DNA of 16,519 nucleotides from Candidatus Eiseniibacteriota bacterium. GTDB taxonomy: Bacteria; Joyebacterota; Joyebacteria; Joyebacterales; Joyebacteraceae. The notes beneath the pieces are model-generated. The model saw only the letters and a program-made list of their open reading frames with translations. It was not told the origin of the DNA and made no database searches. The DNA lies in assembly GCA_043819135.1 (NCBI GenBank), contig JBDRFG010000137.1:1-16519 (forward strand). Direction: 5' to 3'. Of this stretch, positions 1 to 16,066 are shown in pieces. A program made the position numbers and the translations under genes. Numbering within the stretch: position 1 is the stretch's first letter; every line of letters begins with the position of its first letter.

Positions 1-148
1 CGGCCACCTGGAAGAACTCCGCCGCCCGGTCCTGCTTCTCAAGCGCGTCGCAAAGGTCCGCCGTGTAGGTAGCGATGCCACACTTGCGTGGCAGGCTGCT
101 GCCCACGAACGCGACACGACGTGACCGTTGCTTCATGGCTCTTGGCAT
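1..148 (-). CDS. Glycosyltransferase family 4, N-terminal part (runs off the left edge; not in the ORF track)
   Basis: Manual translation from ATG at 148: MPRAMKQRSRRVAFVGSSLPRKCGIATYTADLCDALEKQDRAAEFFQVA. The 'AFVG..LPR.CGIAT.T.DL' motif is typical of a GT4 subfamily N-terminus. GGAG lies about 11 nt upstream; an alternative ATG is at 136. Confidence 0.85.
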   Translation of the reverse strand, partial: MPRAMKQRSRRVAFVGSSLPRKCGIATYTADLCDALEKQDRAAEFFQVA

Positions 149-398: not shown

Positions 399-776
399 TC
401 AGCCCGCGTACAAGCTACGCGAGGTACCTGATCCTGCCCGATCTAGAGATCTCCTACCATTCTTCGGCAGAAGGCGCCTCGCAACCAGCCGCTCCCCCAT
501 CGTGTCGTGAATAGCCTCGAAGCAGGCCCCCGCTACCAACTCGATGCGAACACCCGTCTCCTTGGAGGCGGGTGTTTGCACAGAGGCCAGCATGGTCGGA
601 CGGCTGAAGAGGTGCATCAGGATGTCGCCTGTGTCCGGGTCCACCTCAATCCGCTTCATGAACAGGCTGACCCACTGCCGCATCTCCTCCCTGGTCCCGG
701 CAGCGGACATTCCCCCGAACGCTCTGCGGCATTCCTCCACCAGAGACGCGTCAGCCAGAGTGGGCATCGGCCGCAC
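399..776 (-). pseudogene. C-terminal relic of a probable large serine recombinase reading through an att core
   Basis: 'REEMRQWVSLFMKRIEVDPDTGDILMHL' resembles the end of large serine recombinases. It continues 'IELVAGACFEAIH', where LVAGA is the reverse complement of a tRNA-3'-end-like core. An in-frame TGA at 786-788 and the end of the GT-C gene at 820 leave no room for the catalytic domain. Confidence 0.7.
525..539 (+). repeat. att-like core, copy 1 (GGCCCCCGCTACCAA; resembles the tRNA-iMet 3' end)
   Basis: Exact 15-bp direct repeat with 3559-3573. Initiator tRNA-Met typically ends ...CCGGCCCCCGC(T/A)ACCA. Confidence 0.8.
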
Positions 777-819
777 GGCGGCGCGTCAATTGGGTGGAGT
801 CGTAAGCGGCGGGATCTTG

Positions 820-2880
820 TCACGGGCTCCCCGACCCGCCTGCCGAGCCGCGCACTGGCTCGAACTGCGGTTCCGACGGACGTGGCGGAACGTACTCTCT
901 CACACGATACATCTTCGTAACCACTGTCCCCTTCCCGAGCACCGTGCCGTCCTCTGTGATCGCCATGCCCACTCGGTACCAGGGGTAGCTCCGATCCACG
1001 GTGTCGACGACGCGCTCGAAAAGATCAGGCAGCTCGTCGAGCGGAGACGTAAAGGGCTTGAGCCCAACCGTCCGCATGAAAAGGTAGTTGATCCCGGCGT
1101 CCCTCAGGGCCCCGTGTGCCGAAAGCCCGCTCATTCTGCTGATGTCGAGCCCGACGCCGACGTCGTCCCCCATCAGAACCTCGTTGCCGGGGAGGGACGC
1201 GATGAGGGGATAGCGGTAGGTCTGGTAGAAGTCGTGATCGGTCGGCCGAACGAGGAGGATCCGCGTGCCCACGGGAAGTCCGTAGACGATCTCGGGTATT
1301 CGATAGTATGCGAGACGCGACGCACCACGCTGATGCGACCAGATGTGGTGGTTCTCGCGGAACACCACGCGCAGCGTCTCGAGGCCCGAGAAGAGAACGG
1401 CTAGAGAAACGACAGCGATGATGACCGCTCGCGTTCTCTGCGCGACCGCGTCGAGAACAAGCGCGACCGGCACGCACGCAAGTCCCATGACCGGCAGGAG
1501 AAAACGCGGGAGATGGTGCTTCCCAAACCACCAGGTGAGAACACCGAGCGCGATGAGAGCCAGCACGACAACGCACCGCATCCTGACCGCGGCGCGCGCT
1601 TCGCGATCGAGGCCGCGTTTCGCGAACAACACTACGCCCGGGAGGGCGAGCGCCGCGAAGGCCGCTCCGAAGCCGGCCCCTCCGCTGTAGGTGCTGCCGA
1701 CGTGGCGGTCCATCATCGGGAAGACCCACCAGTAAGCACGCGCCGGCACGAACTGGAACTCCTGCCGGAGCCCCGATGACGCGGCCCACTCCCGGATCCC
1801 CATCGACAGCGGTTCGATCGGATTCCCGGTGAGGACAAGATTGCGCACGAACCAGAAGCCCGCCGGGATCGCCAGTGCTACTACGAGAATCCCCGTGGCC
1901 CCGAGAGCGCGGCGGAGTGATGACGGCCCCGGCTGAGCCGCCGAGAGCGCGTGGAAGATGAACACGAGCGGAACGGCAACGATGACAAACGGGAGGATCG
2001 AGTACTTCGTCCCGAGCGCGAGGCCAAGAGCGAAGCCCGCCGCCACGATCTCGCGCGTGCGACCGCGCCCTCCGACACTCGACTCGAGGGATCGAAGAAG
2101 AAAGAACGCGAAGCAGAGAATGAGCCCCGTCACGACGAGATCGTTCTTCGCGATCGTCGTCTGGAAGAACACGATTGGCGCCGTCAGGAAGACGAGCACC
2201 GCGATCGACGCAGAGGCGACCGATGCCCCGAACCTCCGTCCGATGCCGTAGATAGCGAGCGCCGCGAGAAAGGCGAACGGAAGCTGCACGATCGGTACGA
2301 GTTTATCGCTCCCGCCGAGGAAGAGGGCGAGGATTAGGAGCTCGGCGTTCGAGGGGTAGAAGGCGCCCGTTGAACCGTAGACGCCGAGATCGCCGTGCAG
2401 AAGCCAACTCGCCGTGCGCGGGAGGTGATAGGTCAGGACGTCCCAGTGGCGCGGAGGACCTGAGAGGCCCGACGACACCGCGATCGCGAGGAAAACCGCG
2501 CAGACGAAGAGTACTATGATGAGCGCGTCGTGGCGCCGATCGCGATTTCGCCCGGCCGCGGGCCGGCCCTTCCGGAGACGGAACTCGTCCTGTCGAGCGA
2601 CCTCGGGCCGGAGCGGCCGCACGCGACGCCACAGGAGCGACCACGCGGCTGCGCAGAGAAGGGCTGACACAGTGAGCGCGTTCCCAGCGGTGACCATCGG
2701 TCTGCTGGTCGCGGCGGCCAGGATTCCCAGAAGCTGGAATCCTACCACGAGAAGGCTGAAGGCCGCCAAGGCGCCCGCAGCTAGAGCGGCCACGCCAGAG
2801 CGCCAAAGCCTCCCGATTGGGACGGCCGCGAGCAGGAAGAGGAGGACAGTCAAGAAGACCATTAGGGGATCCACAAGCAC
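820..2880 (-). CDS. Multi-pass membrane glycosyltransferase, GT-C fold (ArnT/PMT_2-like)
   Basis: 686-aa ORF with many hydrophobic helices and motifs 'HWDVLTYHLP', 'FYPSNAELL', 'KNDL', 'GLALGTKYS', 'WFVRN...TGNP' and 'PRFLLP'. Start uncertain (GTG 2880, GTG 2874 or ATG 2862). Confidence 0.8.
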   Translation of the reverse strand: MLVDPLMVFLTVLLFLLAAVPIGRLWRSGVAALAAGALAAFSLLVVGFQLLGILAAATSRPMVTAGNALTVSALLCAAAWSLLWRRVRPLRPEVARQDEFRLRKGRPAAGRNRDRRHDALIIVLFVCAVFLAIAVSSGLSGPPRHWDVLTYHLPRTASWLLHGDLGVYGSTGAFYPSNAELLILALFLGGSDKLVPIVQLPFAFLAALAIYGIGRRFGASVASASIAVLVFLTAPIVFFQTTIAKNDLVVTGLILCFAFFLLRSLESSVGGRGRTREIVAAGFALGLALGTKYSILPFVIVAVPLVFIFHALSAAQPGPSSLRRALGATGILVVALAIPAGFWFVRNLVLTGNPIEPLSMGIREWAASSGLRQEFQFVPARAYWWVFPMMDRHVGSTYSGGAGFGAAFAALALPGVVLFAKRGLDREARAAVRMRCVVVLALIALGVLTWWFGKHHLPRFLLPVMGLACVPVALVLDAVAQRTRAVIIAVVSLAVLFSGLETLRVVFRENHHIWSHQRGASRLAYYRIPEIVYGLPVGTRILLVRPTDHDFYQTYRYPLIASLPGNEVLMGDDVGVGLDISRMSGLSAHGALRDAGINYLFMRTVGLKPFTSPLDELPDLFERVVDTVDRSYPWYRVGMAITEDGTVLGKGTVVTKMYRVREYVPPRPSEPQFEPVRGSAGGSGSP

Positions 2881-2899
2881 CTCACTCTGGACGCCTCGC

Positions 2900-3070
2900 C
2901 TACTCCGATCGCGCCCACCGGACGATCAGCCCGATCGCGTCCGCGTGGAGCAGGAGGTAAAGCAGGAGGAGCGAGCAGCACGCGCCGACGATCCATGAGG
3001 AATAGGGCGAGGGCTCCGGAGCTCGCTTCTTCTGCGAACGTGACTGTCTCGCTGGGCGCTTGCGCTTCAT
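2900..3070 (-). CDS. Small (56 aa) basic, single-TM hypothetical protein
   Basis: AGGAG then 8 nt then ATG at 3070. Sequence MKRKRPARQSRSQKKRAPEPSPYSSWIVGACCSLLLLYLLLHADAIGLIVRWARSE*. It lies between a promoter and the GT-C gene (19-nt gap). Confidence 0.55.
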   Translation of the reverse strand: MKRKRPARQSRSQKKRAPEPSPYSSWIVGACCSLLLLYLLLHADAIGLIVRWARSE

Positions 3071-3152
3071 CCTGTATTCTCCTACGTCTCGTGCCGATGG
3101 ACGACAGGTGGGCGATTCGCCCCTCACGGGACGGCCACGGACACACGCGGAG

Positions 3153-3181
3153 ATGATAGCACTGTTATGAGCGGAGACCAA
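3153..3181 (-). promoter_or_regulatory. Putative sigma70 promoter with extended -10 for the small ORF and GT-C
   Basis: TTGGTC (3181-3176), 17 nt spacer ending TGC, TATCAT (3158-3153). Confidence 0.55.
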
Positions 3182-3394
3182 CTCGGACTCGGCGCGGTGG
3201 TGTATCAGTTCCTGTGTGGAAAGGGCTTGGGGCGGCCACAGTGTACCGGGTCCAGGAACATCTCGGGCGTCCTTCACGCGAGCCTGCGGCCGTCCCGGAA
3301 GCACGCTGACCTCGTGGCCGTTGCGCAGTCGACGATGCCGGTCGCTGCGGGTGCACCACCCGGCCGCGCTGCCCTTGCCTCTCCCCAAGTCGAA

Positions 3395-3421
3395 TCGACG
3401 CTCGTGACGCTGGTGACGCTG
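3395..3421. repeat. 9-bp tandem repeat x3 (TCGACGCTC GTGACGCTG GTGACGCTG)
   Basis: Read directly from the sequence; GACGCT occurs at 3397, 3406 and 3415. Confidence 0.7.
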
Positions 3422-3450
3422 TCTCCCGATCTTTCTGCCCGGACTGCCCA

Positions 3451-3573
3451 TCACGCCGCCGTTCCTACCCTCACCATCTCCAGCTCTGCGTGCTTGACTC
3501 CCTAGTAGCGCCAGTGCGTCGTAACGACAGGCAGCCGCTCCGAATCGGCTACTAACCGGGCCCCCGCTACCAA
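3451..3573 (-). pseudogene. Orphan recombinase C-terminal tail next to att core 2
   Basis: Translation from 3573: LVAGARLVADSERLPVVTTHWRY*GVKHAELEMVRVGTAA*. Same frame relative to the core as the 399-776 relic, with an internal TAG at 3502-3504. Confidence 0.55.
3559..3573 (+). repeat. att-like core, copy 2 (GGCCCCCGCTACCAA)
   Basis: Identical to 525-539. It ends in CCA-A and is followed 6 nt later by a 12-bp hairpin, as expected downstream of a tRNA 3' end. Confidence 0.8.
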
Positions 3574-3579
3574 ACATGG

Positions 3580-3607
3580 AGAGCCCGGGTCCCTAGACCC
3601 GGGCTCT
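3580..3607. terminator. Perfect 12-bp stem-loop, probable terminator
   Basis: AGAGCCCGGGTC-CCTA-GACCCGGGCTCT, between core 2 and the stop of the 3662 gene. U-tract is weak. Confidence 0.7.
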
Positions 3608-3661
3608 TCGTCCTAGGAGGAACCACCTCCCGGGGCTGGCGTCTGTGGGGCGAGGTAGTGG

Positions 3662-6574
3662 CTACTGGCCCTCTAGCTCTGACCGGATCATCTCTAGACC
3701 TCGCGCGACCTGCGGATCGCCGGGAGCAAGATCGTCCGCCCTGAGCAGTGAGGCCTCGGCCCTCTCAAGCACCCCCCGGAGCTCGTCCGGATCTGCGCCG
3801 CCCTGAGATGACAGACCCATCCATCGCTGATAGTCCTCTGACGCCTTTCGAACGTAAGCCATGACGAGAGCGCTGCCGCCGAGGTGACTGACCTCGGGAT
3901 CGTCCGGGAGGATGCGGTCGGCTATCCAGATCTCCTCCAGAGCCGCGTTCATGTTCCCTTCGTACAAGTGGAGCGAGCTCAAGAGAAGATGTCGACGACC
4001 TTCGATGGCCCGGTCCAACTCGGCGCCGAAAGCGTCAGGCCACGTCGACGGTGGGTCCTCCAGGATCGACGCGAAGTCGGGCCTGGCAGCGAGGAGCGCC
4101 TCGAGGTTCTCGGGCCTCGTGTCCCTGCCAAAACTCCGGGACTCCGAGAACTCAAGAAGAGCGTGATCGTCCGTGTTGATCGGACCGTCCCCCACGAACT
4201 CCCGTATCGCTGCGGAGTCAAGCACCAGACACGACACGATCTTTGCCGGCGAGTAAAGCCCCACCGACTTGAGCAGCTCGCCGGCGGTTGGCACACGCGA
4301 GTCTGAGCCTTCGTGCGTCCCGGAGCTCCCGCGCGACAGCGCAGGCTCGAAGATCGTCTCGAGGTTTGCGAGCGTGGTTGTGACCCCGTTCGGACCTCCT
4401 ACGAGCACGCCGTGTTGGCTCGCCATGAAGACGGCCGACTCGGGGAAGACCGAAGAGAACGTACGCAGCAGCACCCTGAAGTCCGAGGACGAGAGCTGGT
4501 GGAGCGGAAGGTACTGAACCATCACTCCGCCCGCGGCAAGCCTCGAGCGGCACAGCTCATAGTAGTCCTTCGTGTAGAGTGCAGGGCTCGCTACGGCGGG
4601 GTGGATCGGATCGCAGCTGATGACATCAAACGTCTTGTCTGTGCCGATGACATAGCTCCGTCCGTCCTCTATGACCCCGCGCACTCTCGAGTCCTTGAGG
4701 ACATCGTAGTTGTATTCGGCGAACACATCAGCGACGTCGAACACGCCGGGGGCGATTTCCACAACCGTGATCTCCTTGAACGGATGTGACGCGACGGCGG
4801 CAAGGGTCGTTCCCATGCCGAGTCCGATCACGAGGGCCGAGTCCCGGCGCTCGGCGAGAATCGCGGGGAGGTGTCCGAGGAAGCCCGCTGTCTGGAGGGC
4901 GCCCATGGACGTGTCCATCGCGAACGTACCGTTGGTGTAGAGACGTCTCACCCCGGTGTCCGTGTCCTCAACCACGATAATCGATGCGCCAATCTCCTCC
5001 TTGTAATAGAGGGTGGTCGTCCCAGCCCCCTTTTCAATCTTGCCGAGGTAGTATTCGCCTCGGTGAGAGGAGGCGGCAACGATCAGGACGGCGACGCCGA
5101 CGGCCATGGCTGCGTACGACAAGCCGACACGCGTTACGCGACGAGGTCGCATCGCTGTCAACAGCAGGAAGCCACCGAACCCCACCAGCAGTATGGCAGA
5201 GATGAGAACGGTCCCTTTCGTTCCAACCGCAGGTATGAGCACGAACCCGGCGAGCAGACTTCCGAGGACAGCGCCAGCCGTGTTGGCGGCGTAGACGGCC
5301 CCGATGCGTCCGCCGAGTCCACGACGCGGCTTTCCACCGGACGCGTCATGACTCGACCCAGCGCGTCCCGTTCGACCTGCGGCGGCCGCCAGCAGGATCG
5401 GGAAGAGCGCACCCGACAGGGCCGCTGGCACGAACATAATGGCCGACGAGAGCCCCAGCCGTCCCACGAAGATCTGACCCCACGTCGGCCCCTGCCCGGG
5501 GGGCGCCAAGGTGCCCACAATCCCCTGGAAGATCTTAGCGCTCTCGAAGATGAGAGGTATGGCGAGCGCTGCCGTCGCGCCGAACCCGATGAGCAGAAAC
5601 GGCACCGCGAATGGCGTCTCTCTGCGCCTCGAGGAGACGATGAGACTCCCCGCGCCGATCCCGATCAGGAACGCCATGAGCATCGCGGAGACCGAGAAGA
5701 TACTCGAGGCAAGCATGAGACGGAGCACCCTGCCCCATACGACCTCGCAGGCGAGCGCTGAGAAGCCCGCCAGGAACGTGGCTGCGTAGATGCCCCACGA
5801 CGGAATCCGAGGTCCGGCCTCGGCCTTCGCGTCCGACGCGGACGACTGCTCGGACGCATCTTCGTCAGCCGCCCTACCACCCGTCCGCACCAGCACGAGC
5901 GCCGCCGCGCCCGCGACGACGTTCATGAGCACGGCCACGAGCGAGGTCGACGAGGTGCCAAGATATCGAAGAAGCACGAAACCTGCCAGGAAGACTCCGA
6001 GCACGGCTCCTAGCGTGTTGACGCCGTAGAGCCCGCCGATGAGCCGCTGCGACGCCCGCGTGCGACAAAGACGGACGGCGGCGCGAACCATCACGGGGAA
6101 CGTCGCCCCCATGAGCATCGTGGGGACGATTAGGAGCAGAAAGACGCCCGCGACTCGCAGGACGACAGCCATAGACGTCGGTCCGCCGGGTCCGTAGAAC
6201 ATGTAGTAGACCGCGCTGGCGCCTCGGACTCCGAGCGGGACTAGGAGAGCGGACACGCCGATACCGAATTGAAGGAACGCATAGATGGTCAGAGCCCGCG
6301 CGCGCCGTCTGTCGAAGACGCTTCCCAGGTACCCCGATCCGAAGGCAAGTCCCGCCATGAAGGCCGCGAGTACGGTGGCGACTGCGGCGGTCGAGCTTCC
6401 GAGCGAGAACTCGAGCGATCTGATCCAGACCACCTGGTGCACGAGGCCCGAGGCACCGGAAACGAAGAAGATCGCAAACAGAACGAACGTGACTCCGCGG
6501 ACTGTCGGAAGCTCTCTGGCCCTGAAAGGAGCTCGAGAAGCTCTCTTGGACTTCCTGCGGTGCGATTCCGACAT
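3662..6574 (-). CDS. Fused MFS-like membrane domain / spermidine-synthase-like SAM-dependent domain with C-terminal TPR-like helices
   Basis: N-terminal TM region 'FFVSGASGLVHQVVWIR', 'LYGVNTLGAVLG'. Class I SAM motifs 'LVIGLGMGTT', 'VVEIAP', 'EDGR', 'FDVISCDPIHP', 'LYTKDYY..RL..GG'. Start placed at ATG 6574 (GAGAGG upstream) rather than 6601. Confidence 0.9.
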   Translation of the reverse strand: MSESHRRKSKRASRAPFRARELPTVRGVTFVLFAIFFVSGASGLVHQVVWIRSLEFSLGSSTAAVATVLAAFMAGLAFGSGYLGSVFDRRRARALTIYAFLQFGIGVSALLVPLGVRGASAVYYMFYGPGGPTSMAVVLRVAGVFLLLIVPTMLMGATFPVMVRAAVRLCRTRASQRLIGGLYGVNTLGAVLGVFLAGFVLLRYLGTSSTSLVAVLMNVVAGAAALVLVRTGGRAADEDASEQSSASDAKAEAGPRIPSWGIYAATFLAGFSALACEVVWGRVLRLMLASSIFSVSAMLMAFLIGIGAGSLIVSSRRRETPFAVPFLLIGFGATAALAIPLIFESAKIFQGIVGTLAPPGQGPTWGQIFVGRLGLSSAIMFVPAALSGALFPILLAAAAGRTGRAGSSHDASGGKPRRGLGGRIGAVYAANTAGAVLGSLLAGFVLIPAVGTKGTVLISAILLVGFGGFLLLTAMRPRRVTRVGLSYAAMAVGVAVLIVAASSHRGEYYLGKIEKGAGTTTLYYKEEIGASIIVVEDTDTGVRRLYTNGTFAMDTSMGALQTAGFLGHLPAILAERRDSALVIGLGMGTTLAAVASHPFKEITVVEIAPGVFDVADVFAEYNYDVLKDSRVRGVIEDGRSYVIGTDKTFDVISCDPIHPAVASPALYTKDYYELCRSRLAAGGVMVQYLPLHQLSSSDFRVLLRTFSSVFPESAVFMASQHGVLVGGPNGVTTTLANLETIFEPALSRGSSGTHEGSDSRVPTAGELLKSVGLYSPAKIVSCLVLDSAAIREFVGDGPINTDDHALLEFSESRSFGRDTRPENLEALLAARPDFASILEDPPSTWPDAFGAELDRAIEGRRHLLLSSLHLYEGNMNAALEEIWIADRILPDDPEVSHLGGSALVMAYVRKASEDYQRWMGLSSQGGADPDELRGVLERAEASLLRADDLAPGDPQVARGLEMIRSELEGQ

Positions 6575-6711
6575 CAGGTTCCTCTCATAGCGCAGGACCA
6601 CGATTCGGCCTCTGGCTTAGCCACCGTGTGCCCTCTCACGTCCAAGGCGCCACGGACGAGGCAGTCGCGTTCAACCGAGTCGATTATGGGCTGCTAACTT
6701 GCCTATGGCCA

Positions 6712-6740
6712 ATTTTGCAGGCCCTACTCGAGGGTGTCAA
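6712..6740 (-). promoter_or_regulatory. Putative sigma70 promoter for the spermidine-synthase-like gene
   Basis: TTGACA (6740-6735), 17 nt spacer, CAAAAT (6717-6712). Confidence 0.5.
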
Positions 6741-6761
6741 GTGCCGTAACCAAATATGTCT

Positions 6762-6798
6762 AACCAAGTACTCACCCATCGTGTCCTGAATGGCCTCG
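6762..6798. repeat. Diverged copy of 483-519 (recombinase-tail relic)
   Basis: 30/37 identical, ungapped. Minus-strand peptides are EAIQDTMGEYLV and EAIHDTMGERLV. Confidence 0.8.
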
Positions 6799-6877
6799 CA
6801 GCCAGAGTGCCACCCTTGGCCTTGAACCTCACCTCGACCACGTCAGAATTCCGACCCAGACTTCTCTCTTGGACTTC

Positions 6878-6896
6878 GTAGCGGACCCCCGCTACC
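6878..6896 (+). repeat. att-like core, copy 3 (CCCCCGCTACC at 6886-6896) within the dyad GTAGCGGA-CC-CCCGCTAC
   Basis: 11-bp match to cores 1 and 2. The minus strand reads VAGVRYEVQERSLGRNSDVVEVRFKAKGGTLAA. It overlaps the flippase stop codon. Confidence 0.65.
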
Positions 6897-8268
6897 GAGC
6901 GCGCACGCGCCCCGCGAGTTTCCGTACAAACCCACCATACAACGCGAGGTCTTCGCGCCGGATGATGACGGTCTCTGCGAGGCCGCACCCGGAAAGCCGC
7001 GTGAAGAACGCGAGCATGAGCGCGCTCTGGAACGTGTAAGCGATGGTCGACGCCCACGCCGCGCCCTCGATGCCGTGCCCGGGTATCCACAGTAAGCAGA
7101 GTCCGGCGTTCGTTCCAAACGCAATGGCGGTCGCGATCGTCTGGTAGATGCGGCGATCCCTGCCGGAGAAGTACCCGGACAGCACTACAGCGATTGACAG
7201 CATGGCGACACCCGGTATTAGGACGCGGAGAGCTCGGAGCGCAGGTAGGAACTCTTCACCGTAGAAGAGGAGTATGAGCGACCGAGACAGGAAATACAGC
7301 ACGACGCCGGCCAGCAGGGTGACCGCAAACGCGTTCCTGGTAACGCGCGGCGTCAGCTCGTTCGCTTCTTCCTGCCCGACCGACGAGAGCCTTGGAAAGA
7401 GAACGACCTGAACTGAGTGCGGGATGTGGGACAGCTTCTCGGCCAGGAGGACCGCTATCGAGTACAGCCCCTGAGTGTGCAGACCCGCCATGGACAGGAT
7501 CAGGAACATGTCGAACCGGTACATGAACGTGACGAAGATGTTGCCGACATGCCCCTGCAGTCCGTACACGACTGACCTTCTGAACATCCCCGGCGGCGGG
7601 CGCTCGAACATTCGTTCGCCTCTGAGTTCGCGTCGCGCCACCAGTATCGCTACGACGGTCACGCAGAACTCGCTCGCGATGTAGGCCGTGAGCGCGCCCC
7701 GTGAACCACCGTGGAAGACGAAGAGGTTCAGGCACATCAGCGCGAGCAACACGCCCGCCTGCATCAGGTTGGCCAGGTTGAACCAGCGGATCCTGTGCAT
7801 GCCCAGCAGAAGCGCGACGGACAGATACTTGAGCAGGAGGATCGGGATCAGCACCGTCGCCAGGCGAAGCACCGACGCGAGGACCGGGTCCGACGCGCCG
7901 CCGTAGAATCGAAGGAAGACCAGGTAGCACGGGACCGCGACCGCACTGACCGCAAGGGTCATGAGCAGCCCCTGCCCGTTTATCTGACCGATGGAGTAGC
8001 GCTTCTGGGAGAGCAGATAGGTGTGGGACGAGTCGATGCCGAGAAGCCCGATGAAGGCAAAGAGCGCCGGGAACGTAACGGCTGATATGTAGGTTCCCTG
8101 GCCGTCCACGCCCAGAAGCCGCGCGATGAGAATGGACGTCGGGATATTGATGAGGACGATGCCAATGCGCGATGTGAACGTCATCAGGCTGTGCCTGAAG
8201 ACGGTTCGCGCCGAACTCTGGCCGTCCACGTGGTCCCGCAACCTCCACCCCCGTTCATCGTGACTCAC
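6892..8268 (-). CDS. Oligosaccharide/polysaccharide flippase (Wzx-like, MOP superfamily)
   Basis: 458 aa, highly hydrophobic, with 'ARLLGVDGQG.Y', 'YRFDMFLI', 'GLYSIAVLLAE', 'LFPRLS' and 'GIEGAAWASTIAY'. GTGA overlap with the upstream GT4 stop. Confidence 0.9.
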   Translation of the reverse strand: MSHDERGWRLRDHVDGQSSARTVFRHSLMTFTSRIGIVLINIPTSILIARLLGVDGQGTYISAVTFPALFAFIGLLGIDSSHTYLLSQKRYSIGQINGQGLLMTLAVSAVAVPCYLVFLRFYGGASDPVLASVLRLATVLIPILLLKYLSVALLLGMHRIRWFNLANLMQAGVLLALMCLNLFVFHGGSRGALTAYIASEFCVTVVAILVARRELRGERMFERPPPGMFRRSVVYGLQGHVGNIFVTFMYRFDMFLILSMAGLHTQGLYSIAVLLAEKLSHIPHSVQVVLFPRLSSVGQEEANELTPRVTRNAFAVTLLAGVVLYFLSRSLILLFYGEEFLPALRALRVLIPGVAMLSIAVVLSGYFSGRDRRIYQTIATAIAFGTNAGLCLLWIPGHGIEGAAWASTIAYTFQSALMLAFFTRLSGCGLAETVIIRREDLALYGGFVRKLAGRVRAR

Positions 8269-9545
8269 GTCCGTGATATTCCGGTGCTTCGGGTGGAGCG
8301 ATCACTCACGGCCCGCTCCATGACCTCGACCTCCATGGCCTGCCGTTCCTCCATGGTCGGGAATCGCTCGTCCATGCGGACCCGGGCCGCTTCTCCGAGC
8401 GTCCTCGCGCGAGCGTTGTCCCCCAGGAGCTCGAGCAGCACCCGGGGCAGGTCCGGCAGCTCCTCCAGCGACACCAGCACGCCGGTTCGACCCGCCTCCA
8501 CGAAGTCCGCGGTTCTGCCCGTGTTGAGAGCCACGACCGGCAGCGCCGACAGCATCGCCTCGTAGAGCGTGTTGAACGCGTTGGTCCGGTTCGAGAGCGT
8601 CACGAAGACGTCGGCCGAGGCGTAGACCCCCGGCAGTGCGTCGTGAGAAATGGCGCCGGTGAAGACGACATCACCGCTGATGCCGAGCTCGGCCGCAACA
8701 GCCTCGAGCCGGTCTCGATCCTCACCATCCCCGACGATCAGGAACGTGATGTCGGCGCGCTCGGAGAGTATGCCCGGCGCCGCGCGGAGCAGTCTGTCGA
8801 TGCGCTTCTCCTCGGAGAGCCGCGCCACGCTGAGCACGACCTTGTTTCCCTTCGGAATCCCGTACCTCATCGTTACCGACGGATCGCGTTCTGCGCCGAC
8901 AAACCTGTCTTTGTCGACGCCGTCGAGAAAGAACAGGAATCGGTCCATGTCGACACCGAGCATGGCCGCAAGCTCGTCACCGCAAGACCCGTCGTTGTGC
9001 ACGATCATGTAGTCAGACGGTGTCTTGAACGCCGCTATTTCCCTGTACCTCAGGATGAACCTGAGCGGGCTGGAACGGATGTCATCAATGTAGATCCCGA
9101 CGCCAAAGAACCGGCTGACGCACGGGACGCGGCGCATCCGGGACAAGATGAAAGCAGCGGGCGCCCCAAGTTCGCCCATGCCGAAGAAGGCGTCGGGCCG
9201 GATCCTCTTCGCGAGCGCCAGGCCGGCTGGAAGAACTCTGACGAACCAGTAGAGATAGGAGAGAAGCAGCTTGGCGTGGTGCACCAGCTTGTTGCTGCCG
9301 GGACTGGGCATGAAGTTCACTGCGCTCCTGAAGCGGTGGAGCGTGACGCCGTGGTAGTCCTCTTCGGAAACGCAGCCCGGGAGCCCGGGCATCAGCACGT
9401 GCATGTCGTGGCCGTGCTTCGGGAAGCTCGTGATGGAAAGGAAGAACGACGGCGCGCCCCGGCCCTCTCCCATCGACCAGAACTCGCGCCAGCTGTAGAT
9501 GGCCAGGACCGTGAGGGGCTGATGCTCCTGGGGCGTGTTTGTCAC
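8265..9545 (-). CDS. Glycosyltransferase family 4 (GT-B)
   Basis: 'VLSVARLSEEKRIDRLL', 'LIVGDG', 'VYASADVFV', 'EAMLSALPVV'. Start placed at GTG 9545 (GGAG upstream, and downstream of the promoter) rather than 9629. Confidence 0.9.
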   Translation of the reverse strand: MTNTPQEHQPLTVLAIYSWREFWSMGEGRGAPSFFLSITSFPKHGHDMHVLMPGLPGCVSEEDYHGVTLHRFRSAVNFMPSPGSNKLVHHAKLLLSYLYWFVRVLPAGLALAKRIRPDAFFGMGELGAPAAFILSRMRRVPCVSRFFGVGIYIDDIRSSPLRFILRYREIAAFKTPSDYMIVHNDGSCGDELAAMLGVDMDRFLFFLDGVDKDRFVGAERDPSVTMRYGIPKGNKVVLSVARLSEEKRIDRLLRAAPGILSERADITFLIVGDGEDRDRLEAVAAELGISGDVVFTGAISHDALPGVYASADVFVTLSNRTNAFNTLYEAMLSALPVVALNTGRTADFVEAGRTGVLVSLEELPDLPRVLLELLGDNARARTLGEAARVRMDERFPTMEERQAMEVEVMERAVSDRSTRSTGISRT

Positions 9546-9591
9546 TGGCTCGCTCCAATTACTGCGTGAATTCTGGCCACCGGGCTCGGTC

Positions 9592-9620
9592 AGGGTAGCA
9601 CGCCTCACGGCCGGCGGCAA
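9592..9620 (-). promoter_or_regulatory. Putative sigma70 promoter for the GT4-flippase operon
   Basis: TTGCCG (9620-9615), 17 nt spacer ending TGC, TACCCT (9597-9592). Confidence 0.5.
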
Positions 9621-9649
9621 CACCGGCAACCCATGCCGGTAACCGCGCT

Positions 9650-9678
9650 TTGACTTCGGCGGACAACGAGGCTAGCAT
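9650..9678 (+). promoter_or_regulatory. Putative sigma70 promoter for the EamA gene (divergent pair)
   Basis: TTGACT (9650-9655), 17 nt spacer, TAGCAT (9673-9678). Confidence 0.6.
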
Positions 9679-9740
9679 CGCCGGAGCTGTCCGACGGTAG
9701 TCTCGGACACGAGCAGACAGCCCCGAGAAGAGGCAACGTC

Positions 9741-10356
9741 GTGAACTGGGTTCCCATGGCGATAGTGACCGCGATCGGATTTGCCTCGGCCGGCAGCTAC
9801 GCGAAAGCGCTGTCGAAGAGGACGCGCGTTTACGTGGTCACGTGGGCGTTCATTGCGCTGTCGGCGCCGTGGACGGCCCTGGCATTGATGCGGCAGGGCA
9901 TGCCCCCGCTCGGCGACAAGTTCCTTCGCGCCGCTCAAGGCGATAGCATCTGAGAAGGGAAGCCTCCTGACGCTCGTCGTCGCCATCTGGAGCATCTCAG
10001 CCGTCTTCGACAAGGTCGCGACCGTCGAGAGTTCGCCGGTCTTCTACACCACGTTCTTCGCGCTCGCGTACGCGCCGTTCGTCGTCTTCGGCGTGAGGAA
10101 GAGCTCCCCGGACCTGGTGACCTGGCCGCGGCTCCTGCTGCTTGGACTCTTCACTGCGATCATGATACTGAGCCAGTTCACGGCCATTGAAATGACGGTC
10201 GCCAGCTACGTCATCGCCATCAAGCGCGCGGGCATGGTGCTGTCGGTCGTGTTCGGGTACTTCTTCTTCAAAGAGAGACACCCGCGAGCCAGGCTCACAG
10301 GTGCGCTGCTGATGACTGCCGGAGTGATCGTTCTGTCGCTGCAGGGTGGACCCTAG
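9741..10356 (+). pseudogene. EamA/DMT family transporter with internal deletion and frameshift
   Basis: Frame 1: MNWVPMAIVTAIGFA...PLGDKFLRAA, then stop at 9953. Frame 2 from 9928: APLKAIASEKGSLLTLVVAIWSISAVFDKVATVESSPVFY...VASYVIAIKRAGMVLSVVFGYFFFKERHPRARLTGALLM. Combined length is about 207 codons, versus about 290 for a two-repeat EamA. Confidence 0.8.
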
Positions 10357-13300
10357 GTGTCCCCGTCACCGGATCGACCGGCGGCCTCTCCCAGCCCCAG
10401 CCCCGTGAAGCGCGACAGGTCCCCCGACCGCCCCGATTCGCCCAGGATCTCGGCCGAGGTCCGGATGTCGCTCGCGATGTCCGGACGCGAGAGGAACGAG
10501 GGTCCCGCGTCGCCAAGCTCGCGGACGAGTCCCACCGCCGCGTCCAGGCAGCAGGCGGCGTTCTCTGCCGAGTCGCTCTCTCCGCGGGATATGCGAGCCA
10601 GCAGGCAGCGGCACCTGAGAAGCAGCTCCCGCTCCCCCATGGACCAGGCCATGTCACAAGCGGTCACGGCCGCCTCCCTCGCTCCCGCGCGGTCGCCGCT
10701 CTCGAGAAGCGTCTGGGCGCGGTAGAACTCGGCGGCGCCCAGAACGGATTCCAGGCCCAGTGAGCGCGCCTCCTCGACCACACCGTCGAGCACGGCGGTC
10801 GACTCGTCGAGCTTGCCCTCGCGGCGAAGTGCCCGTCCGAGTTCCGACGCGACCTGCAGGAGCGTGATGCGGCCGCCGCTTGACTCCGCGTGCGTCCGCG
10901 CCTTCTCGAGGTCGGTCACAACGGAATCGGAACCCGCCAGGTTCCCCATGGTTCCACGGGCCAGAAGCGCGTCCGCAATCAGCTCTTCGTTGCCGATCTC
11001 GTCGGCCATCTCGAGGGCACGCGCCACCGTGTCGGCCGCGATGTCGCAGTTCCCCAGCGAGCATTCGAGCTTGGAGCGCGCGGCCAGCGACCAGGCGACG
11101 CCGTTCTTGTCGCCGAGTTCCTCGAAGATGCCGAAGGCCTCTTCTTGGGATTCGAGGGCGGCCTGGTATCTCCCCTGCAGCGCCATCACCGTTGCCATGT
11201 AGCCGCGCGTCTCCGCTTCGCCGCTGCGCCATCCGATCTCTTTGGAGATCTTCAGAGCCTCGAGATATCTGGCCATCGCCTTGTCGTGGCGACCCCGCAG
11301 GCGTTCGATGTTCCCCAGGTAGTTGAGCGATATCGCGATGCCCTTCTTCTCACCCAGCTGCCTGCGCGCCTCGAGGGCTCGCTGGAAGTAGACCCCTGCG
11401 TCGTCGACCTTTCCCTGGATCAGGTACACGTTGCCGATGTCGTTCAGGCAGAGTATCTCGGCCATGCGGTCGCCCAGGCCCGACTCGACCTTGAGTGCCT
11501 TCTTGTAGCTCTCGAGCGCCTCGTCCAGCGACCCGCGCTCCTCGTAGGCGGTCCCCATGTTGATCATGTTCTCCGCCGTCCCGCGGACATCGCCCAGCTC
11601 TCTGCTGATGTCGATGGCCGCCTCGTAGGTCTCGATACACTTCTCGTAGTCGCCCCTGACCTGATAGACGACGGCCATGTTCGAGAGAGTCGCGCTCTCC
11701 CCGCGACGGTCTCCTATCTGTCGCTTGATCTCGAGCGACTCGAGGTAGTGCTTGAGCGCCTCGTCGTATCTGTCCAGGTAGTAGTCGGCCAGACCGATCG
11801 CGTTCAGGACAGTTGCGCGTCCCTCATCGTTACCGAGGAGAGTGTTGAGCGAAAGCGCCCGGTATAGGTATTCCAGCGCCTCCTGGCCGCTGCCCTTCTT
11901 GATGTTGACGCGCCCCATGGCGAACAGCGCCGTGACGAACTTGGGGTCCAGCTCGATGATCCGCTCGAGGTTTCTGATGGCGCCGTCCCAGTCGCCCTTC
12001 ATCTCGTAGGCCTGGGCCAGCTCGTAGACGGCACTCAGGTTGTTTGGCAGTAGCTGGACCAGGAGCTCGAACGCCTCGATCGCACGGTCGATCTCACCGG
12101 CCACCATCGCTTCCCTGGCGGTGATGAAGAGCGAGTCCGCGCGGGTGAGGCCGTCTCCTCGCCGCGCGGCGTTGCCGAGGGCGTCGCGCGCCTCCTCCAC
12201 CCTGCCCGAGTTCGAGAGCGCTTCGCCCAGATAGGTGTAGGCGAGCGCGAAGTCCGGGTCGCGCTCGACGGCCTCAGAGAGAAGAGTGATGGCCTCTAGG
12301 TTGTTCCCCTCGTAGAGCTTCGCAAGGCCGTCGACGTACGCCCTGATCGCCTCTGGCTTCTCCGAGCCCTTCTCTCCGACCATCGTGACGACCAGGTCTC
12401 GCGCGCCCTCGCTCTGGATCGTGCGTCGAACCTGGGCCGCGAGGTGAGCCACGACCTGCAACAGCTCGGCCTCCGTCGAGGCCTCGGCCTTCTCGTGCAC
12501 GTCTTCGCCCGTGGAGGGTCGCCGTATCGAGACGTCGACCCGCGCCGCGGGACCGAGCTTGACGAAGCTGCCGCTGACGATCGTGTCGACGTTGAGAAAC
12601 TCGCCGATCGACCGGAGCGCCATCTCGTCGAGCGCGGAGTCGGGACGCAGCTTGAGGTCCGCCATCAGCGTCGTCAGACGGTCGGCCGGCACGACGCGCA
12701 ACGTCGGGACCTGCGAGAGGTCGCTTCCCAGCATCACCTGAAGGCCCGACTGCATCCAGTCGGCTTCGGGATTGCCGGTCATGTTCCTGAAGGGAAGCAC
12801 GACGATCGAGTGCTGTGGGTCTATCCAGGTGGTCTCCTGGAGCGGCTTGTCAACGACCCCGGTGGCGGTCCGCCACGCGGTCTGTGCCAGCGAACCGAGT
12901 TGGGTCCCCAGCACCGAGGATGCCGGCGCACCGAACTTCTCAAGCTCCGCGGCCACCGCGCCGCAATCGTCGAATCGGTCGGCGGCCTTCTTCGCGAGGG
13001 AGCGCGCGACGATCGCCTGATACTCCCGCGGCACTCCGGCGTCGTCCGGTATCGGAGCGGGTGGAGTGTTGACGACCGCGTATAGAACCTCCACGTGGGT
13101 CTCCCCTGGGAAGGCCGGCCGGCCTGTTGCCATCTCGTAGAACACCGCACCGGAGGCGAAGACGTCCGCCCTCGCATCGACGGGCGTGCCTCGCGCCTGC
13201 TCGGGAGACATGTAGCGCGCCGTCCCCATCACGGCGCCTTCACGGGTGAGTGACATGGCCTGCGTCGCGTCGGAGCTCTCCGACTGCTGAAGCAGCTTGG

Positions 13301-13757
13301 CCAGGCCGAAATCGAGTATCTTGACCAAGCCGTCCGGCCTGACGACGATGTTCTCGGGTTTGATGTCGCGGTGCACGATGCCCAGCTCGTGGGCCTTACC
13401 GAGGGCGCGGGCGATCTGTCTGGAGAGGTCGAGAATCTCGCCGAACGACGGGATGCCGGCGGATATCCTCGCGCGCAGCGTCTCGCCATCGACGAGTTCC
13501 ATGGCGATGAACGTCATGCCGTCGACTTCATCGATCTCGTAGATGGTGGCGATGTTGGGATGATTGATGGCGGACGCGGCCTGCGCCTCACGGATGAATC
13601 GCTGGACACGCTCGTGGTCGGAGGCGACGTCTTGCGCCAGAACCTTGAGCGCGACACGCCGGCCCAGCTTCGTGTCCTCGGCGGCGTAGACGATGCCCAT
13701 GCCGCCCCGGCCGAGTTCTTCGATGACGCGGTAGTGAGAGATCGTTTTGTCTACCAT
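10353..13757 (-). CDS. Serine/threonine protein kinase with TolB_N-like domain and multiple TPRs
   Basis: Intact Hanks motifs [21 protein letters not shown] and YMSPEQ. 'SIVVLPFRN' domain follows, then a long TPR array. ATG 13757 preferred; GTG 13772 possible. Confidence 0.95.
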
Positions 13758-13903
13758 GCTGTCCCGTATCACGCCTGGATTCGAGTCTGAGAAGGCGTCC
13801 GCCGCTGAGTATTGGTCACCGGCGCCGAGCTTCAGGCTACCAGATGCGCGGCGTCCTGACCACCCGGTTCCTGAGACGGGGGCGTGAGCGCCCGGTACGT
13901 AGC

Positions 13904-13983: not shown

Positions 13984-15927
13984 CTAGCGTATGAAGGCGA
14001 CCTTCGACGTCAGGACCTCACTCGCGGACTCCACGCGCGCGAAGTAGACGCCCGACGCGATCGGTCGGCCCGTCTCGTCGATGCCGTTCCACACTATCGT
14101 TTCACCACCCTCGGGCAACCGGCCCTCGTAGACGGTCGCCACGAGCCTTCCGGACACGCTGTATATGCGAGCCGCAACCTCGGTGCCAATGGGGCCCGAC
14201 AGAGCGAGTCTGCACTCACCGCGAGCCGGGCTCGTGATCGCGAGCGATATTGACGAGAACGCGTCGATCCCGGTGAGAGACCCCCCGCTCTCCAGTCCGA
14301 TGCTGTACATCAGCGTCTTCGAGTGAGCCAGAAGATGAGCGACCATGTTGCCGAGAGGATCATCGGAGCTGTCGGGGATGCACCAGCCGGCGTGGCTCCG
14401 GATCAACCCGTTCATGACGGCAAGCTCGGAGAGGGCGTTCGTGTACTGGCCCGCGCCGTAGTAGTCGCTGGCGCTCTTCTGGTACTTCTGCAGCCACTTG
14501 ATGAACTCCCAGGGGCACGGGTCGCCGCCGGGCATGTTGTCCGGGACGTCCATGGCGAGCTCGAGTCGCCAGAACTTGTAGGCCGTGACCTCGGGCAGCG
14601 TTCTGTCGTCCTCGACCAGCACGACCTCAGTCGGGCCGGTCTCGACCCTCTTGCCGCTCGTCGGCAGCTCGCTGAAGCGCGGAATAGTGCCGCGCGCATC
14701 CTCTATGCTCCCGACGACCGTGAAGTCGCGGAACGTGTCCCCCACGCCGCTCGCATAGAACAGGCGAGACCCCTCCTCGATAACGTCGACCTGGATGAGG
14801 CCCTCGTAGACCGCGTCCGTGGACAGGCCAACGTAGGAGAAGGCGGAGGCCCTCCCCGATCCCGGGAGCTGAGCGTCGGCAGGCAGGTAGTTGCCCTCGG
14901 GGCTGACTCTGGACGTCGTTACTTCTACGACGGCCGTCGTGAATCCCGAAGACGTGACCGATTCGTAGGTCACCTCGATGTTCTTCCCAGGCTTCACGAG
15001 GACATCCTCACCCTCGGGCGTCGGAGTGAACCCCGCCACTCCGATGGCGCCGAGGCTGACTATCCCGACGCCGAACGGATACCCAATCTGGTAGCCGTCC
15101 GAGCTGTAGCGCTCGACACGGTCCGTCTGGGAGTTGGCCAGGTAGATGATCCCGTTGGCGTCGATCTCGATGTCAGTGTAGCCCGGGTTGGATGCGGCCC
15201 CGAACCCCCAGACGTAGCCGTAATCCTCATCCACATAGAAGAGCCCGTCGCTCCAGTCCACCAAGATGATCCCGCCGTCAGGGTTGATGGCGATCCCGGT
15301 GACATCAACTGGCATCATCCCAGAGTCGGCCACGAGACCGTAGTAGAGAAAACTGTCGGCCTCGGTGCGCTCGATCTCGATGATCGAGTAGCCGTCGTCG
15401 CCAACCAGGGCAACGATGTTGCCGGCCTTGGGACCTGAGGGGCGGACGGCGATGTCCACGACATCCGGTTGGATGAACTCGTAGACCGCTTCCGCGGGAC
15501 CCACTCCACCGCTGAGGAGACCGAGCCAGGAACCGTCTGGGTTCTCCCGTGTGCCGTCGGCGCCCTTCCAGTTCTGCTGCTTCACAACGTAGATGTCATC
15601 TCCCAGGTCCACTGCCACCGCACCGGCTATGTGACCCGAGACATCCGCATCGAGCACCTCGACGACCTGCGTATCTACGTCGAACCTGAGAAGGTCGTCA
15701 TCTCCGTCGGAGGACGACAGAAGCAAGCGTCCCTCGTGGTCGAGGGCCATGTCGATGACGTTGGGAATGAGCGTGCAGGGATTGACGACGGTCCCGATTG
15801 TGTCCTGGAAGCTGAGAACGTTGCCGGGATAGTCCTCCCCCGCGAACACCTGGGCCGCCGACTCGGCGGGTCCGATGGCCAGTGTCGCGGTCAGGAGCAG
15901 CAGCGCCATCGTGTGGCAGTGTCGCAT
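13984..15927 (-). CDS. Secreted protein: signal peptide, NHL-like beta-propeller, uncharacterised beta domain, helical domain, C-terminal FlgD-Ig/T9SS-like domain
   Basis: AAGGAG before ATG 15927, signal 'MALLLLTATLAIGPAESAA', repeats 'GIAINPDG' and 'DIEIDANGIIYLANSQTDRVERY', and C-terminus 'IYSVSGRLVATV...WNGIDETGRPIASGVYFARV'. Confidence 0.85.
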   Translation of the reverse strand: MRHCHTMALLLLTATLAIGPAESAAQVFAGEDYPGNVLSFQDTIGTVVNPCTLIPNVIDMALDHEGRLLLSSSDGDDDLLRFDVDTQVVEVLDADVSGHIAGAVAVDLGDDIYVVKQQNWKGADGTRENPDGSWLGLLSGGVGPAEAVYEFIQPDVVDIAVRPSGPKAGNIVALVGDDGYSIIEIERTEADSFLYYGLVADSGMMPVDVTGIAINPDGGIILVDWSDGLFYVDEDYGYVWGFGAASNPGYTDIEIDANGIIYLANSQTDRVERYSSDGYQIGYPFGVGIVSLGAIGVAGFTPTPEGEDVLVKPGKNIEVTYESVTSSGFTTAVVEVTTSRVSPEGNYLPADAQLPGSGRASAFSYVGLSTDAVYEGLIQVDVIEEGSRLFYASGVGDTFRDFTVVGSIEDARGTIPRFSELPTSGKRVETGPTEVVLVEDDRTLPEVTAYKFWRLELAMDVPDNMPGGDPCPWEFIKWLQKYQKSASDYYGAGQYTNALSELAVMNGLIRSHAGWCIPDSSDDPLGNMVAHLLAHSKTLMYSIGLESGGSLTGIDAFSSISLAITSPARGECRLALSGPIGTEVAARIYSVSGRLVATVYEGRLPEGGETIVWNGIDETGRPIASGVYFARVESASEVLTSKVAFIR

Positions 15928-16066
15928 CTCCATCTCCTTTCGCCCGGCGTGCACCGCGGCGCCACCTCTCGCAACGGGATGTCTGCCTAGAGGTACCATG
16001 CAGAACGGCACGCAGATTTGGGGCGGCGTGCGCGAGCCATGAATCTCGATTCTGTGATGTGTGGCA

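Follow-up and report, generated by a model that had tools for sequence, protein, structure and literature searches.

The window analysed here is a stretch of 16,519 nucleotides that makes up the whole of contig C137 in a metagenome-assembled genome (MAG) of a Candidatus Eiseniibacteriota bacterium; it very probably represents the distal end of an array in which small gene units were stacked in tandem by large serine recombinases (LSRs) that target the 3′ end of the initiator tRNA gene (tRNA-fMet). The source genome (G000) comprises 2.69 Mb on 174 contigs at 64% GC; other G numbers denote the genomes of relatives and C numbers denote contigs. Because the window is the entire contig, a point missed in the first-pass annotation, nothing lies to its left in the G000 assembly. 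The core CCCCCGCTACC is present at positions 527, 3561 and 6886, always on the plus strand and at intervals of 3034 and 3325 bp, and copies 1 and 2 match over 15 bp. By chance 0.01 copies are expected, and 0/200 shuffles reached three; scan and shuffles thus agree with what had been noticed from the letters alone. The features of the window are as follows.

1..136, minus strand: 5′-end of the GT4 glycosyltransferase cargo of unit A, truncated by the contig end
399..525, minus strand: left (P) arm of type a at junction 1, encoding a peptide tail that extends the LSR frame past the core
513..767, minus strand: LSR 3′ remnant whose frame enters core 1 and continues past it; 85 aa align with the end of the C12 LSR at 63.5% identity
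526..539, plus strand: att core 1, identical to the final bases of tRNA-fMet (C68:16923-16999)
545..580, plus strand: 16-bp hairpin behind core 1, within the LSR remnant (z −8.3)
820..2880, minus strand: GT-C/PMT-like membrane glycosyltransferase of 686 aa, cargo of unit B (527-3561); its Pfam matches fall under the curated cut-off
2900..3070, minus strand: open reading frame (ORF) of 56 aa with one hydrophobic stretch, a putative gene from ORF calling
3397..3559, minus strand: left (P) arm of type b at junction 2, about 170 bp conserved across the family, with a premature stop in the tail frame here
3560..3573, plus strand: att core 2, a copy of the tRNA-fMet-type core
3576..3611, plus strand: 16-bp hairpin in the right (P-prime) arm of unit C (z −7.3), with no LSR remnant
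3662..6601, minus strand: MFS-like/spermidine-synthase fusion of 969-979 aa, sole cargo of unit C (3561-6886)
6712..6740, minus strand: sigma-70-like promoter, TTGACA-17-CAAAAT, with 10/12 matches, facing the unit C cargo
6802..6884, minus strand: left (P) arm of type c at junction 3, from arm comparison
6885..6898, plus strand: att core 3, overlapping the flippase stop codon (6892-6894); the conserved distal end of the array
6892..9629, minus strand: flippase (6892-8268) and GT4 (8265-9629), the constant right flank of the array in the genus

The cargo first described, a GT4, a small ORF with a GT-C and an MFS/spermidine-synthase fusion, is indeed what the units contain, and the two complete cargo genes are uninterrupted. 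A complete homologue of unit A, 90% identical to the window, spans 3769 bp from core to core in G002 and encodes a GT4 (699 aa) and a GH130. Homologues of the GT-C gene are found in G016 and G010 without cores, and the fusion used as a query returned no full-length homologue in the seven other genomes of the genus. Each unit had further been said to read core, VAG(A/V) tail, promoter and cargo on the minus strand. The tails are present in frame; the promoter is found only at 6740-6712, with the other two minus-strand matches directly beside it, and nothing passes the scan behind cores 527 or 3561. The LSR remnant right of core 527, the hairpins and the overlap of core 6886 with the flippase stop had gone unnoticed. 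The hairpin at 545..580 may serve as a terminator-like element for a restored tRNA; no strong hairpin follows core 6886 (z −0.8). Neither Rfam nor ARAGORN returned a match in the window.

The cores had been proposed to be tRNA-fMet-type att sites of a serine-recombinase system, and the source genome bears this out at both ends of the relationship. Its tRNA-fMet (C68:16923-16999) terminates in the core, with two further cores downstream on C68, and a full-length LSR on C12, possessing Resolvase, Recombinase and zinc-ribbon domains, has a reading frame that crosses a core. The 11-mer CCCCCGCTACC is not a common word in this genome, occurring 11 times in 2.69 Mb and at att-like sites in 10 of these cases. 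A profile trained on such sites themselves identified 15 att-like sites, the tRNA included, on eight contigs (C68, C92, C97, C53, C34, C12, C19 and C137), and none in the reversed genome.

The link to LSRs extends to other genomes. A second LSR subfamily, in G001, also reads through a core, and its relatives read into an intact tRNA-Met at 5/14 loci. Five viral contigs were found by the DNA site pattern; on two of them a full LSR reads into a tRNA-less site, as expected of attP, and a search of the viral contigs by peptide pattern confirmed no LSR. The two closest titled database relatives of the LSR (75-86%) are labelled Ca. Eisenbacteria, and LSRs of INPHARED phages are distant, with 23-26% identity in the 10 matches listed. 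The Recombinase domain was found in 9/31 genomes, partly as other families at tRNA-Asn, -Lys or -Glu; since MAGs often lose mobile DNA, a missing domain is to be read as not found rather than absent. Upstream of the C12, G001 and G002 LSRs a single Pfam match (DUF3987) was obtained before the contigs end within 1-3 kb. Two LSRs of another family are present in G000 (C107:91834-93660 and C42:2-988), the latter reading into tRNA-Asn, and relatives of this family lie near tRNA-Lys/Glu in G013 and G043. In the LSR of locus L050 (G002:C244) a proline replaces the serine of the YARVS motif found in its relatives; as we take this serine to be the catalytic residue, the protein is probably inactive.

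Comparison of 93 internal junctions reveals that agreement with the tRNA begins at the core: position −1 is G in 81 and the tRNA base T in six, the tRNA's own AATCCT stands just left of the core in five, and a minority carry T-loop bases. The bases immediately left of the core differ even between units that are 99% identical. The commonest left ends render the att site symmetric, and strand exchange would take place at the central two bases of GTAGCGG-GCCC-CCGCTAC. Three junctions of genus g3 contain the host-specific tRNA variant base, which fits formation at the host's own tRNA; G015:C27 is without the variant base of its host. No empty tRNA-fMet site was recognised among the genomes examined, the G015 tRNA having been rejected as a candidate when the adjoining DNA proved to be a TrkAH unit. 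Junctions arranged head to head, with an inverted left arm in place of the right arm, occur in G000 (C53:1889), G006:C188, G016:C60 and G021:C277 and may point to past inversions at the symmetric site.

The anatomy of the array was surveyed on 49 complete core-to-core units from 14 genomes, on contigs picked for pattern or LSR matches. Their median size is 2776 bp, and 46 are no larger than 6 kb. The absence of an intact recombinase, first remarked in the window, applies throughout: 0/49 contain a full LSR, and three LSR queries detected remnants of 25-185 aa in ten units and no trace in 39. The order of tail, promoter and cargo on one strand is not general, the largest ORF lying on the plus strand in 22 units and on the minus strand in 19, with none in eight (ORF calls are noisy at 64% GC). 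Nor does the supposed emphasis on cell-envelope genes hold across the family, where the cargo comprises GT4 with GH130, GT-C, TreT/trehalose genes, TrkAH (K+ uptake), RND efflux, AbiE and nucleotidyltransferase toxin-antitoxin pairs, a sulfatase and FlgD-tail (secreted) proteins. Among 54 ORFs scanned, the 45 from array segments, a subset of all unit ORFs, included no relaxase or integrase. Left arms fall into types a-d, the families being 70-90% alike, and right arms are either LSR ends or bare hairpins; 35 left/right combinations are found among 110 junctions, with unclassified arms counted as one class. No conserved ORF for a directionality factor was detected in the extended type-b arm, and some of these arms hold what is presumably an IS3-like transposase end. 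An OmpA-domain unit end is present twice in G000 at 96% identity (C53:72-1664 and C68:26053-27645) with different right neighbours, either as a duplicate or as a strain variant.

The peptide tails encoded by the left arms deserve separate treatment. In the minus-strand frame, cores 527, 3561 and 6886 give tails that begin VAGA, VAGA and VAGV; such tails resemble the C-terminal 20-40 residues of LSRs and exist in at least three interchangeable versions. The ratio of nonsynonymous to synonymous polymorphism (pN/pS) in the LSR frame, taken past the first nine codons over related pairs, is 0.48 for arm a and 0.46 for arm b, with stops in 2/31 and 3/26. The four frames without common third positions give 0.92-1.58, and the antisense frame with common third positions gives 0.62 and 0.51 with stops in 9/31 and 23/26. 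Database LSRs display the tRNA-derived ending plus further tail types. Given these endings and the low ratios in a and b, the tails are most simply interpreted as the true C-terminus of the LSR, cut off by its own att site. The fold predicted for the remnant-plus-tail ORF of the window includes two tail strands, which are unreliable at a mean predicted local distance difference test score (pLDDT) of 58 and a predicted TM-score (pTM) of 0.26.

Relatives do not conserve the gene order of the array; it breaks at the cores. Nine homologous unit pairs, defined by homology over at least 60% of both units, have unrelated left neighbours in every case (ungapped arm identity 0.24-0.43), and on the right one pair shares the arm type (0.62) and one reaches a contig end. 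Own-arm identity is low in several, the same cargo being flanked by different arms, and the G002 homologue of unit A likewise has a different right neighbour. In G005 two units stand in the order X-Y-flippase and in G004 in the order Y-X-flippase, with the units 94-98.5% and the flank 93% identical and each of the four junctions (X|Y, Y|X, X|flippase and Y|flippase) internal to a contig. This is the permutation that would result from a two-unit circle re-entering via the other junction; independent entry in the opposite order would also require that both LSR-less units moved. G007 and G015 share a trehalose unit of 5384 bp that is 99% identical over its full length and is joined to different left arms, the match failing just left of the core (the alignment begins 23 bp left); as G015:C27 may be mis-binned, this evidence rests on the two contexts rather than the genus assignments. 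Firmer evidence across genera comes from the TrkAH unit, which has long matches in 13/30 other genomes and is 80-90% identical across genera in which flippase DNA is 67-70% identical; two genomes have it beside the tRNA, others in an internal position. In G016 one unit is present twice (1699 and 1701 bp, 90%), once adjacent to the tRNA and once internally. Since relatives carry the same units in different orders, the array is probably being reshuffled and not merely decaying.

The distal end is conserved in position and variable in content. The core adjacent to the flippase is kept in 7/8 genomes of the genus plus G044, and the units next to it match in 0/28 pairs among eight genomes, one of these units offering only 90 bp (a ninth case, G020, was left out). 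As none of eight flippase loci from other genera has a core, the junction was more likely fixed in the genus ancestor, and the flippase end as native sequence behind the tRNA is the less likely alternative. The flippase-GT4-EamA block (window 6886-9934) is 67-69% identical to congeners, against 82-83% for the downstream kinase region, and closest to G044 (78%); perhaps the block was itself exchanged, or it descends from a unit captured long ago.

The system is not confined to the source genome. A first pattern, GSCCCCGCYAC, was too loose, its controls equalling the signal, and was replaced by a stricter one that matched in 30 of the 31 genomes representing the whole family and phylum here, at least twice in 22; a single match is usually the tRNA itself. 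The eight genomes of the window's genus have 3-13 strict matches each and no control matches (controls elsewhere reach 3). Arrays extend to at least 10 sites, within 33 kb on G016:C60; multi-gene units reach 12 kb, and neither the two long stretches of G010:C32 nor G010:C37 had any sites. In metagenomes the junction pattern was found in at least 123 stretches. Of 37 loci selected because they had several sites or long flanks, at least two cores are present in 23; a tRNA-Met was called in five, where 0.4-5 kb separates it from the next site. Genes of the PIN, HicB, Phd or similar kinds are frequent in their short units, and at L195, L201 and L212 a frame with LSR domains runs into the core. No terminal repeats were noted among loci L138-L262 longer than 700 bp.

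A mechanism can be proposed from the target, the LSR link, the unit anatomy and the exchange and reordering of LSR-less units at cores between genomes, all of which the sequences show. Each unit consists of a right arm that restores the tRNA end, adds a hairpin and sometimes retains an LSR 3′ remnant, then cargo with its own promoter, then a left arm. An LSR supplied transiently by autonomous islands or phages would cut out one unit, or several in a row, as a circle and return it to the tRNA or to another junction, and we infer that units are thereby mobilised in trans. The att site would split the LSR gene, such that an LSR adjacent to the tRNA ends in 13 residues read from the tRNA antisense, and one in a circle or behind another unit gains a tail of 20-40 residues from the preceding left arm, which may set its activity. 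That LSRs still move units lacking a recombinase is reasonably probable, and of the two possibilities raised at the outset, mobile cassettes or an inert graveyard of islands, the comparisons favour mobile units; the term 'integron-style' applies by analogy only. We entertain more tentatively, as a possibility, a working cassette-shuffling platform across the lineage, comparable to an integron that lacks an enzyme of its own. A visiting LSR would recombine any two junctions, so that units are permuted and traded between genera; the tail derived from the neighbour would switch LSR isoforms according to array position (tRNA-adjacent, internal or circular); and short units with toxin-antitoxin or stress genes, located behind tRNA-Met on many unrelated metagenome contigs, would use the same att family.

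Several observations weigh against an LSR-built and still mobile array. For an internal unit to be excised, two attP-like hybrid sites must recombine, a reaction that canonical serine integrases perform poorly. Integration by attP x attB is described as essentially irreversible (PMC5499577). The left arm beside the C12 LSR measures only about 25 bp, which leaves this LSR without an intact tail. The genomes that reveal swaps or transfer (G004, G007, G015 and G016) gave no Recombinase-domain match, only LSR fragments, and a helper LSR is for this reason assumed. No contig end joins C137 to C68, that is, the window array to the tRNA, in G000, and the cores on C12, C19 and C34 have 21-57 kb of left flank without tRNA-fMet; therefore several arrays or very large units are possible. 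Decay is evident on C68, where a GT-C unit has internal deletions and inverted cargo, and in the stops within some tails. The pN/pS values are uncorrected and come from related pairs, which are not independent, and arm c gives 0.68 against 0.74 in one control frame. The comparisons are drawn across species-level MAGs rather than strains, and short contigs can be mis-binned. The sole read run, containing 0.11 of the words, assembled into 13 short contigs with no joints and none crossing a core; no circle or empty junction was seen in it, the data being too sparse.

Among other explanations the best supported is accretion followed by decay, modelled on cis-mobilizable elements (CIMEs), in which integration and transfer genes are lost, att sites are kept and tandems possess chimeric internal sites (Guedon et al. 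2017, PMC5704250). Units would have arrived as autonomous islands or attached to them and lost the LSR in place, with movement now in cis with an intact neighbouring island or not at all, and the differing orders would reflect separate entry histories plus deletions between cores. We regard this as unlikely, even though it matches a three-step model set out in the published accounts (PMC5704250; PMC3146451). The graded remnants of 25-185 aa in 10/49 units suit it, tail selection could be inherited from ancestral islands, and no circles were seen in the sparse single read run. Yet 39/49 units have no LSR trace, and oldest distal units in common, which the explanation predicts, are contradicted by the 0/28 matching pairs at the flippase. 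Addition at one end plus deletion cannot yield both X-Y and Y-X from a single ancestor unless both LSR-less units moved, and near-identical reduced units lie in different positions (5384 bp in G007/G015; 1699/1701 bp in G016).

Host homologous recombination could instead account for the present shuffling of an LSR-built array, acting between arms of 100-170 bp or common cargo on DNA acquired by transformation or transduction. Few arm families that are 70-90% alike, the same cargo with different arms and low own-arm identity in several pairs, the varying bases left of the core in 99% units and AATCCT in 5/93 junctions would all be compatible with it. It is nonetheless decidedly improbable, in that arm types combine freely (35 among 110), switching at a 14-bp core too short for RecA, and the match of the 99% pair ends just left of the core. 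That chimeric joins at repeats mimic reordering is hardly credible: all genomes are short-read-type MAGs with many contig breaks near cores, the G004 join depends on a 114-bp overlap, and G015:C27, G044:C154 and G020:C238 could be mis-binned, but the common core of 11-15 bp is far under usual assembly word lengths, all four X/Y/flippase junctions lie inside contigs, and the pattern recurs in 14 genomes plus independent metagenome contigs.

The architecture of such arrays has already been described at ssrA (PMC3146451). In that account of Dehalococcoides (McMurdie et al. 2011) the ssrA-specific genomic islands are in tandem, the DsiB LSR overlaps attL with an unclear stop codon, DsiB ends are divergent, the question of the tail is raised, and 16 modules are reported along with 15 module-less islands proposed as CIMEs. 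The array treated here shares with these islands, as described there, the tandem position behind a tRNA-like gene, the 3′-end repeats as markers and a reverse-strand LSR that overlaps attL and takes its stop codon from outside, seen in the C12 LSR and many remnants. In contrast to their 20-bp ssrA repeats, the core is the tRNA-fMet end, and the G000 tmRNA ends differently; exchange would occur in the acceptor stem and not the T loop, with junctions departing from the tRNA up to the core. The six-gene module (dsiB, dsiA, RecF-like, ParB, Mom and RNA polymerase-domain genes) was not found upstream of the C12, G001 and G002 LSRs, within the 1-3 kb that their contigs allow, and a full LSR is present in 0/49 complete units against 16 modules there. 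Relative to that work, the evidence for order swaps, for distal turnover of recombinase-less units and for protein-level selection on a split-off tail is new. CIMEs, too, keep att sites in tandem without the recombinase, as do these units (0/49 with a full LSR); the example described involves tyrosine integrases, streptococci and a tandem of two elements (PMC5704250), unlike the at least 10 sites in 33 kb and the reordering of units found here. The order swaps argue for more than the cis-only movement of CIMEs and would be compatible with multi-unit circles.

Integrons are rows of small, recombinase-less, exchangeable gene units served by the tyrosine integrase IntI at attI and attC sites. The present array is likewise a row of such units. 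It differs in that none of seven PF00589 matches in G000 lies on the eight core-bearing contigs (the array contigs being fragmented), in that the junctions are tRNA-end att sites and not attC, attC-like repeats lying mostly on other contigs, and in the lack of a common promoter, the mixed cargo orientation and the hairpins after cores 1 and 2. The attC-like repeat itself, in about 27 copies with TAAC starts and GTTAG-like ends some 0.6-3 kb apart, occupies C79, C121, C2, C66, C35, C110, C52 and C59; one copy on C34 is split, and C12 has an incomplete one. The set resembles a classical integron attC array; its integrase was not identified among the seven tyrosine-recombinase matches. Among the staphylococcal cassette chromosomes (SCC), ccr-less pseudo-SCC units exist. 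SCC and the Enterococcus cassette chromosome (ECC), as characterised in PMC6222049, resemble the array in employing an LSR, att sites of about 50 bp with dyad symmetry, multiple attR sites and variable cargo. They depart from it in the two-gene ccrAB acting at rlmH, where a single LSR at tRNA-fMet is found here, in larger elements (32 kb in one example) and, for ECC, in consistently fewer than five att matches per genome (PMC6222049). The array works like an array of ssrA islands or CIMEs and fails defining features of ssrA islands, integrons and SCC.

Other repeats in G000 were recorded. The 3′ ~760 bp of one gene occur six times at 84-91% identity, at C4:1-66, on C19 (114-881, 12487-13216 and 21020-21779) and on C12 (1425-2186, 21298-21901 and 25672-26433). 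The gene is presumably TldD/PmbA-like; C4, which shares an 81-bp overlap with C19, carries its 5′ part, and the repeats are possibly a second island array targeting a protein gene. After these repeats C12 and C19 end in tRNA-fMet-type cores. Genes for tmRNA (C26:256-627 and C109:11547-11918) and tRNA-Arg(tct) (C26 and C88) were called twice, reflecting duplication or bin redundancy. The right flank of the array in the window further encodes a Ser/Thr kinase with many TPR repeats (10353-13772, 1139 aa) and a DUF6689/FlgD-tail secreted protein (13984-16011, 675 aa).

According to the Islander account, no serine recombinase is known to target a tRNA gene (PMC4383910), and the open-licence papers searched, supplements excluded, yielded none on LSR arrays at tRNA-fMet. 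Finders of the Islander type, which as described require an on-board tyrosine integrase (PMC4383910), would miss such arrays. The question raised for Dehalococcoides (PMC3146451), whether the LSR needs a circle or a preceding island to be complete, becomes testable here, where three natural tail types and the tRNA-derived ending allow direct comparison. An LSR that hits the highly conserved end of the initiator tRNA and accepts hybrid sites could serve in serial gene stacking. For this uncultured lineage, the array would be a route by which genes for osmoprotection, K+ uptake, efflux, glycosylation and toxin-antitoxin systems may be traded.

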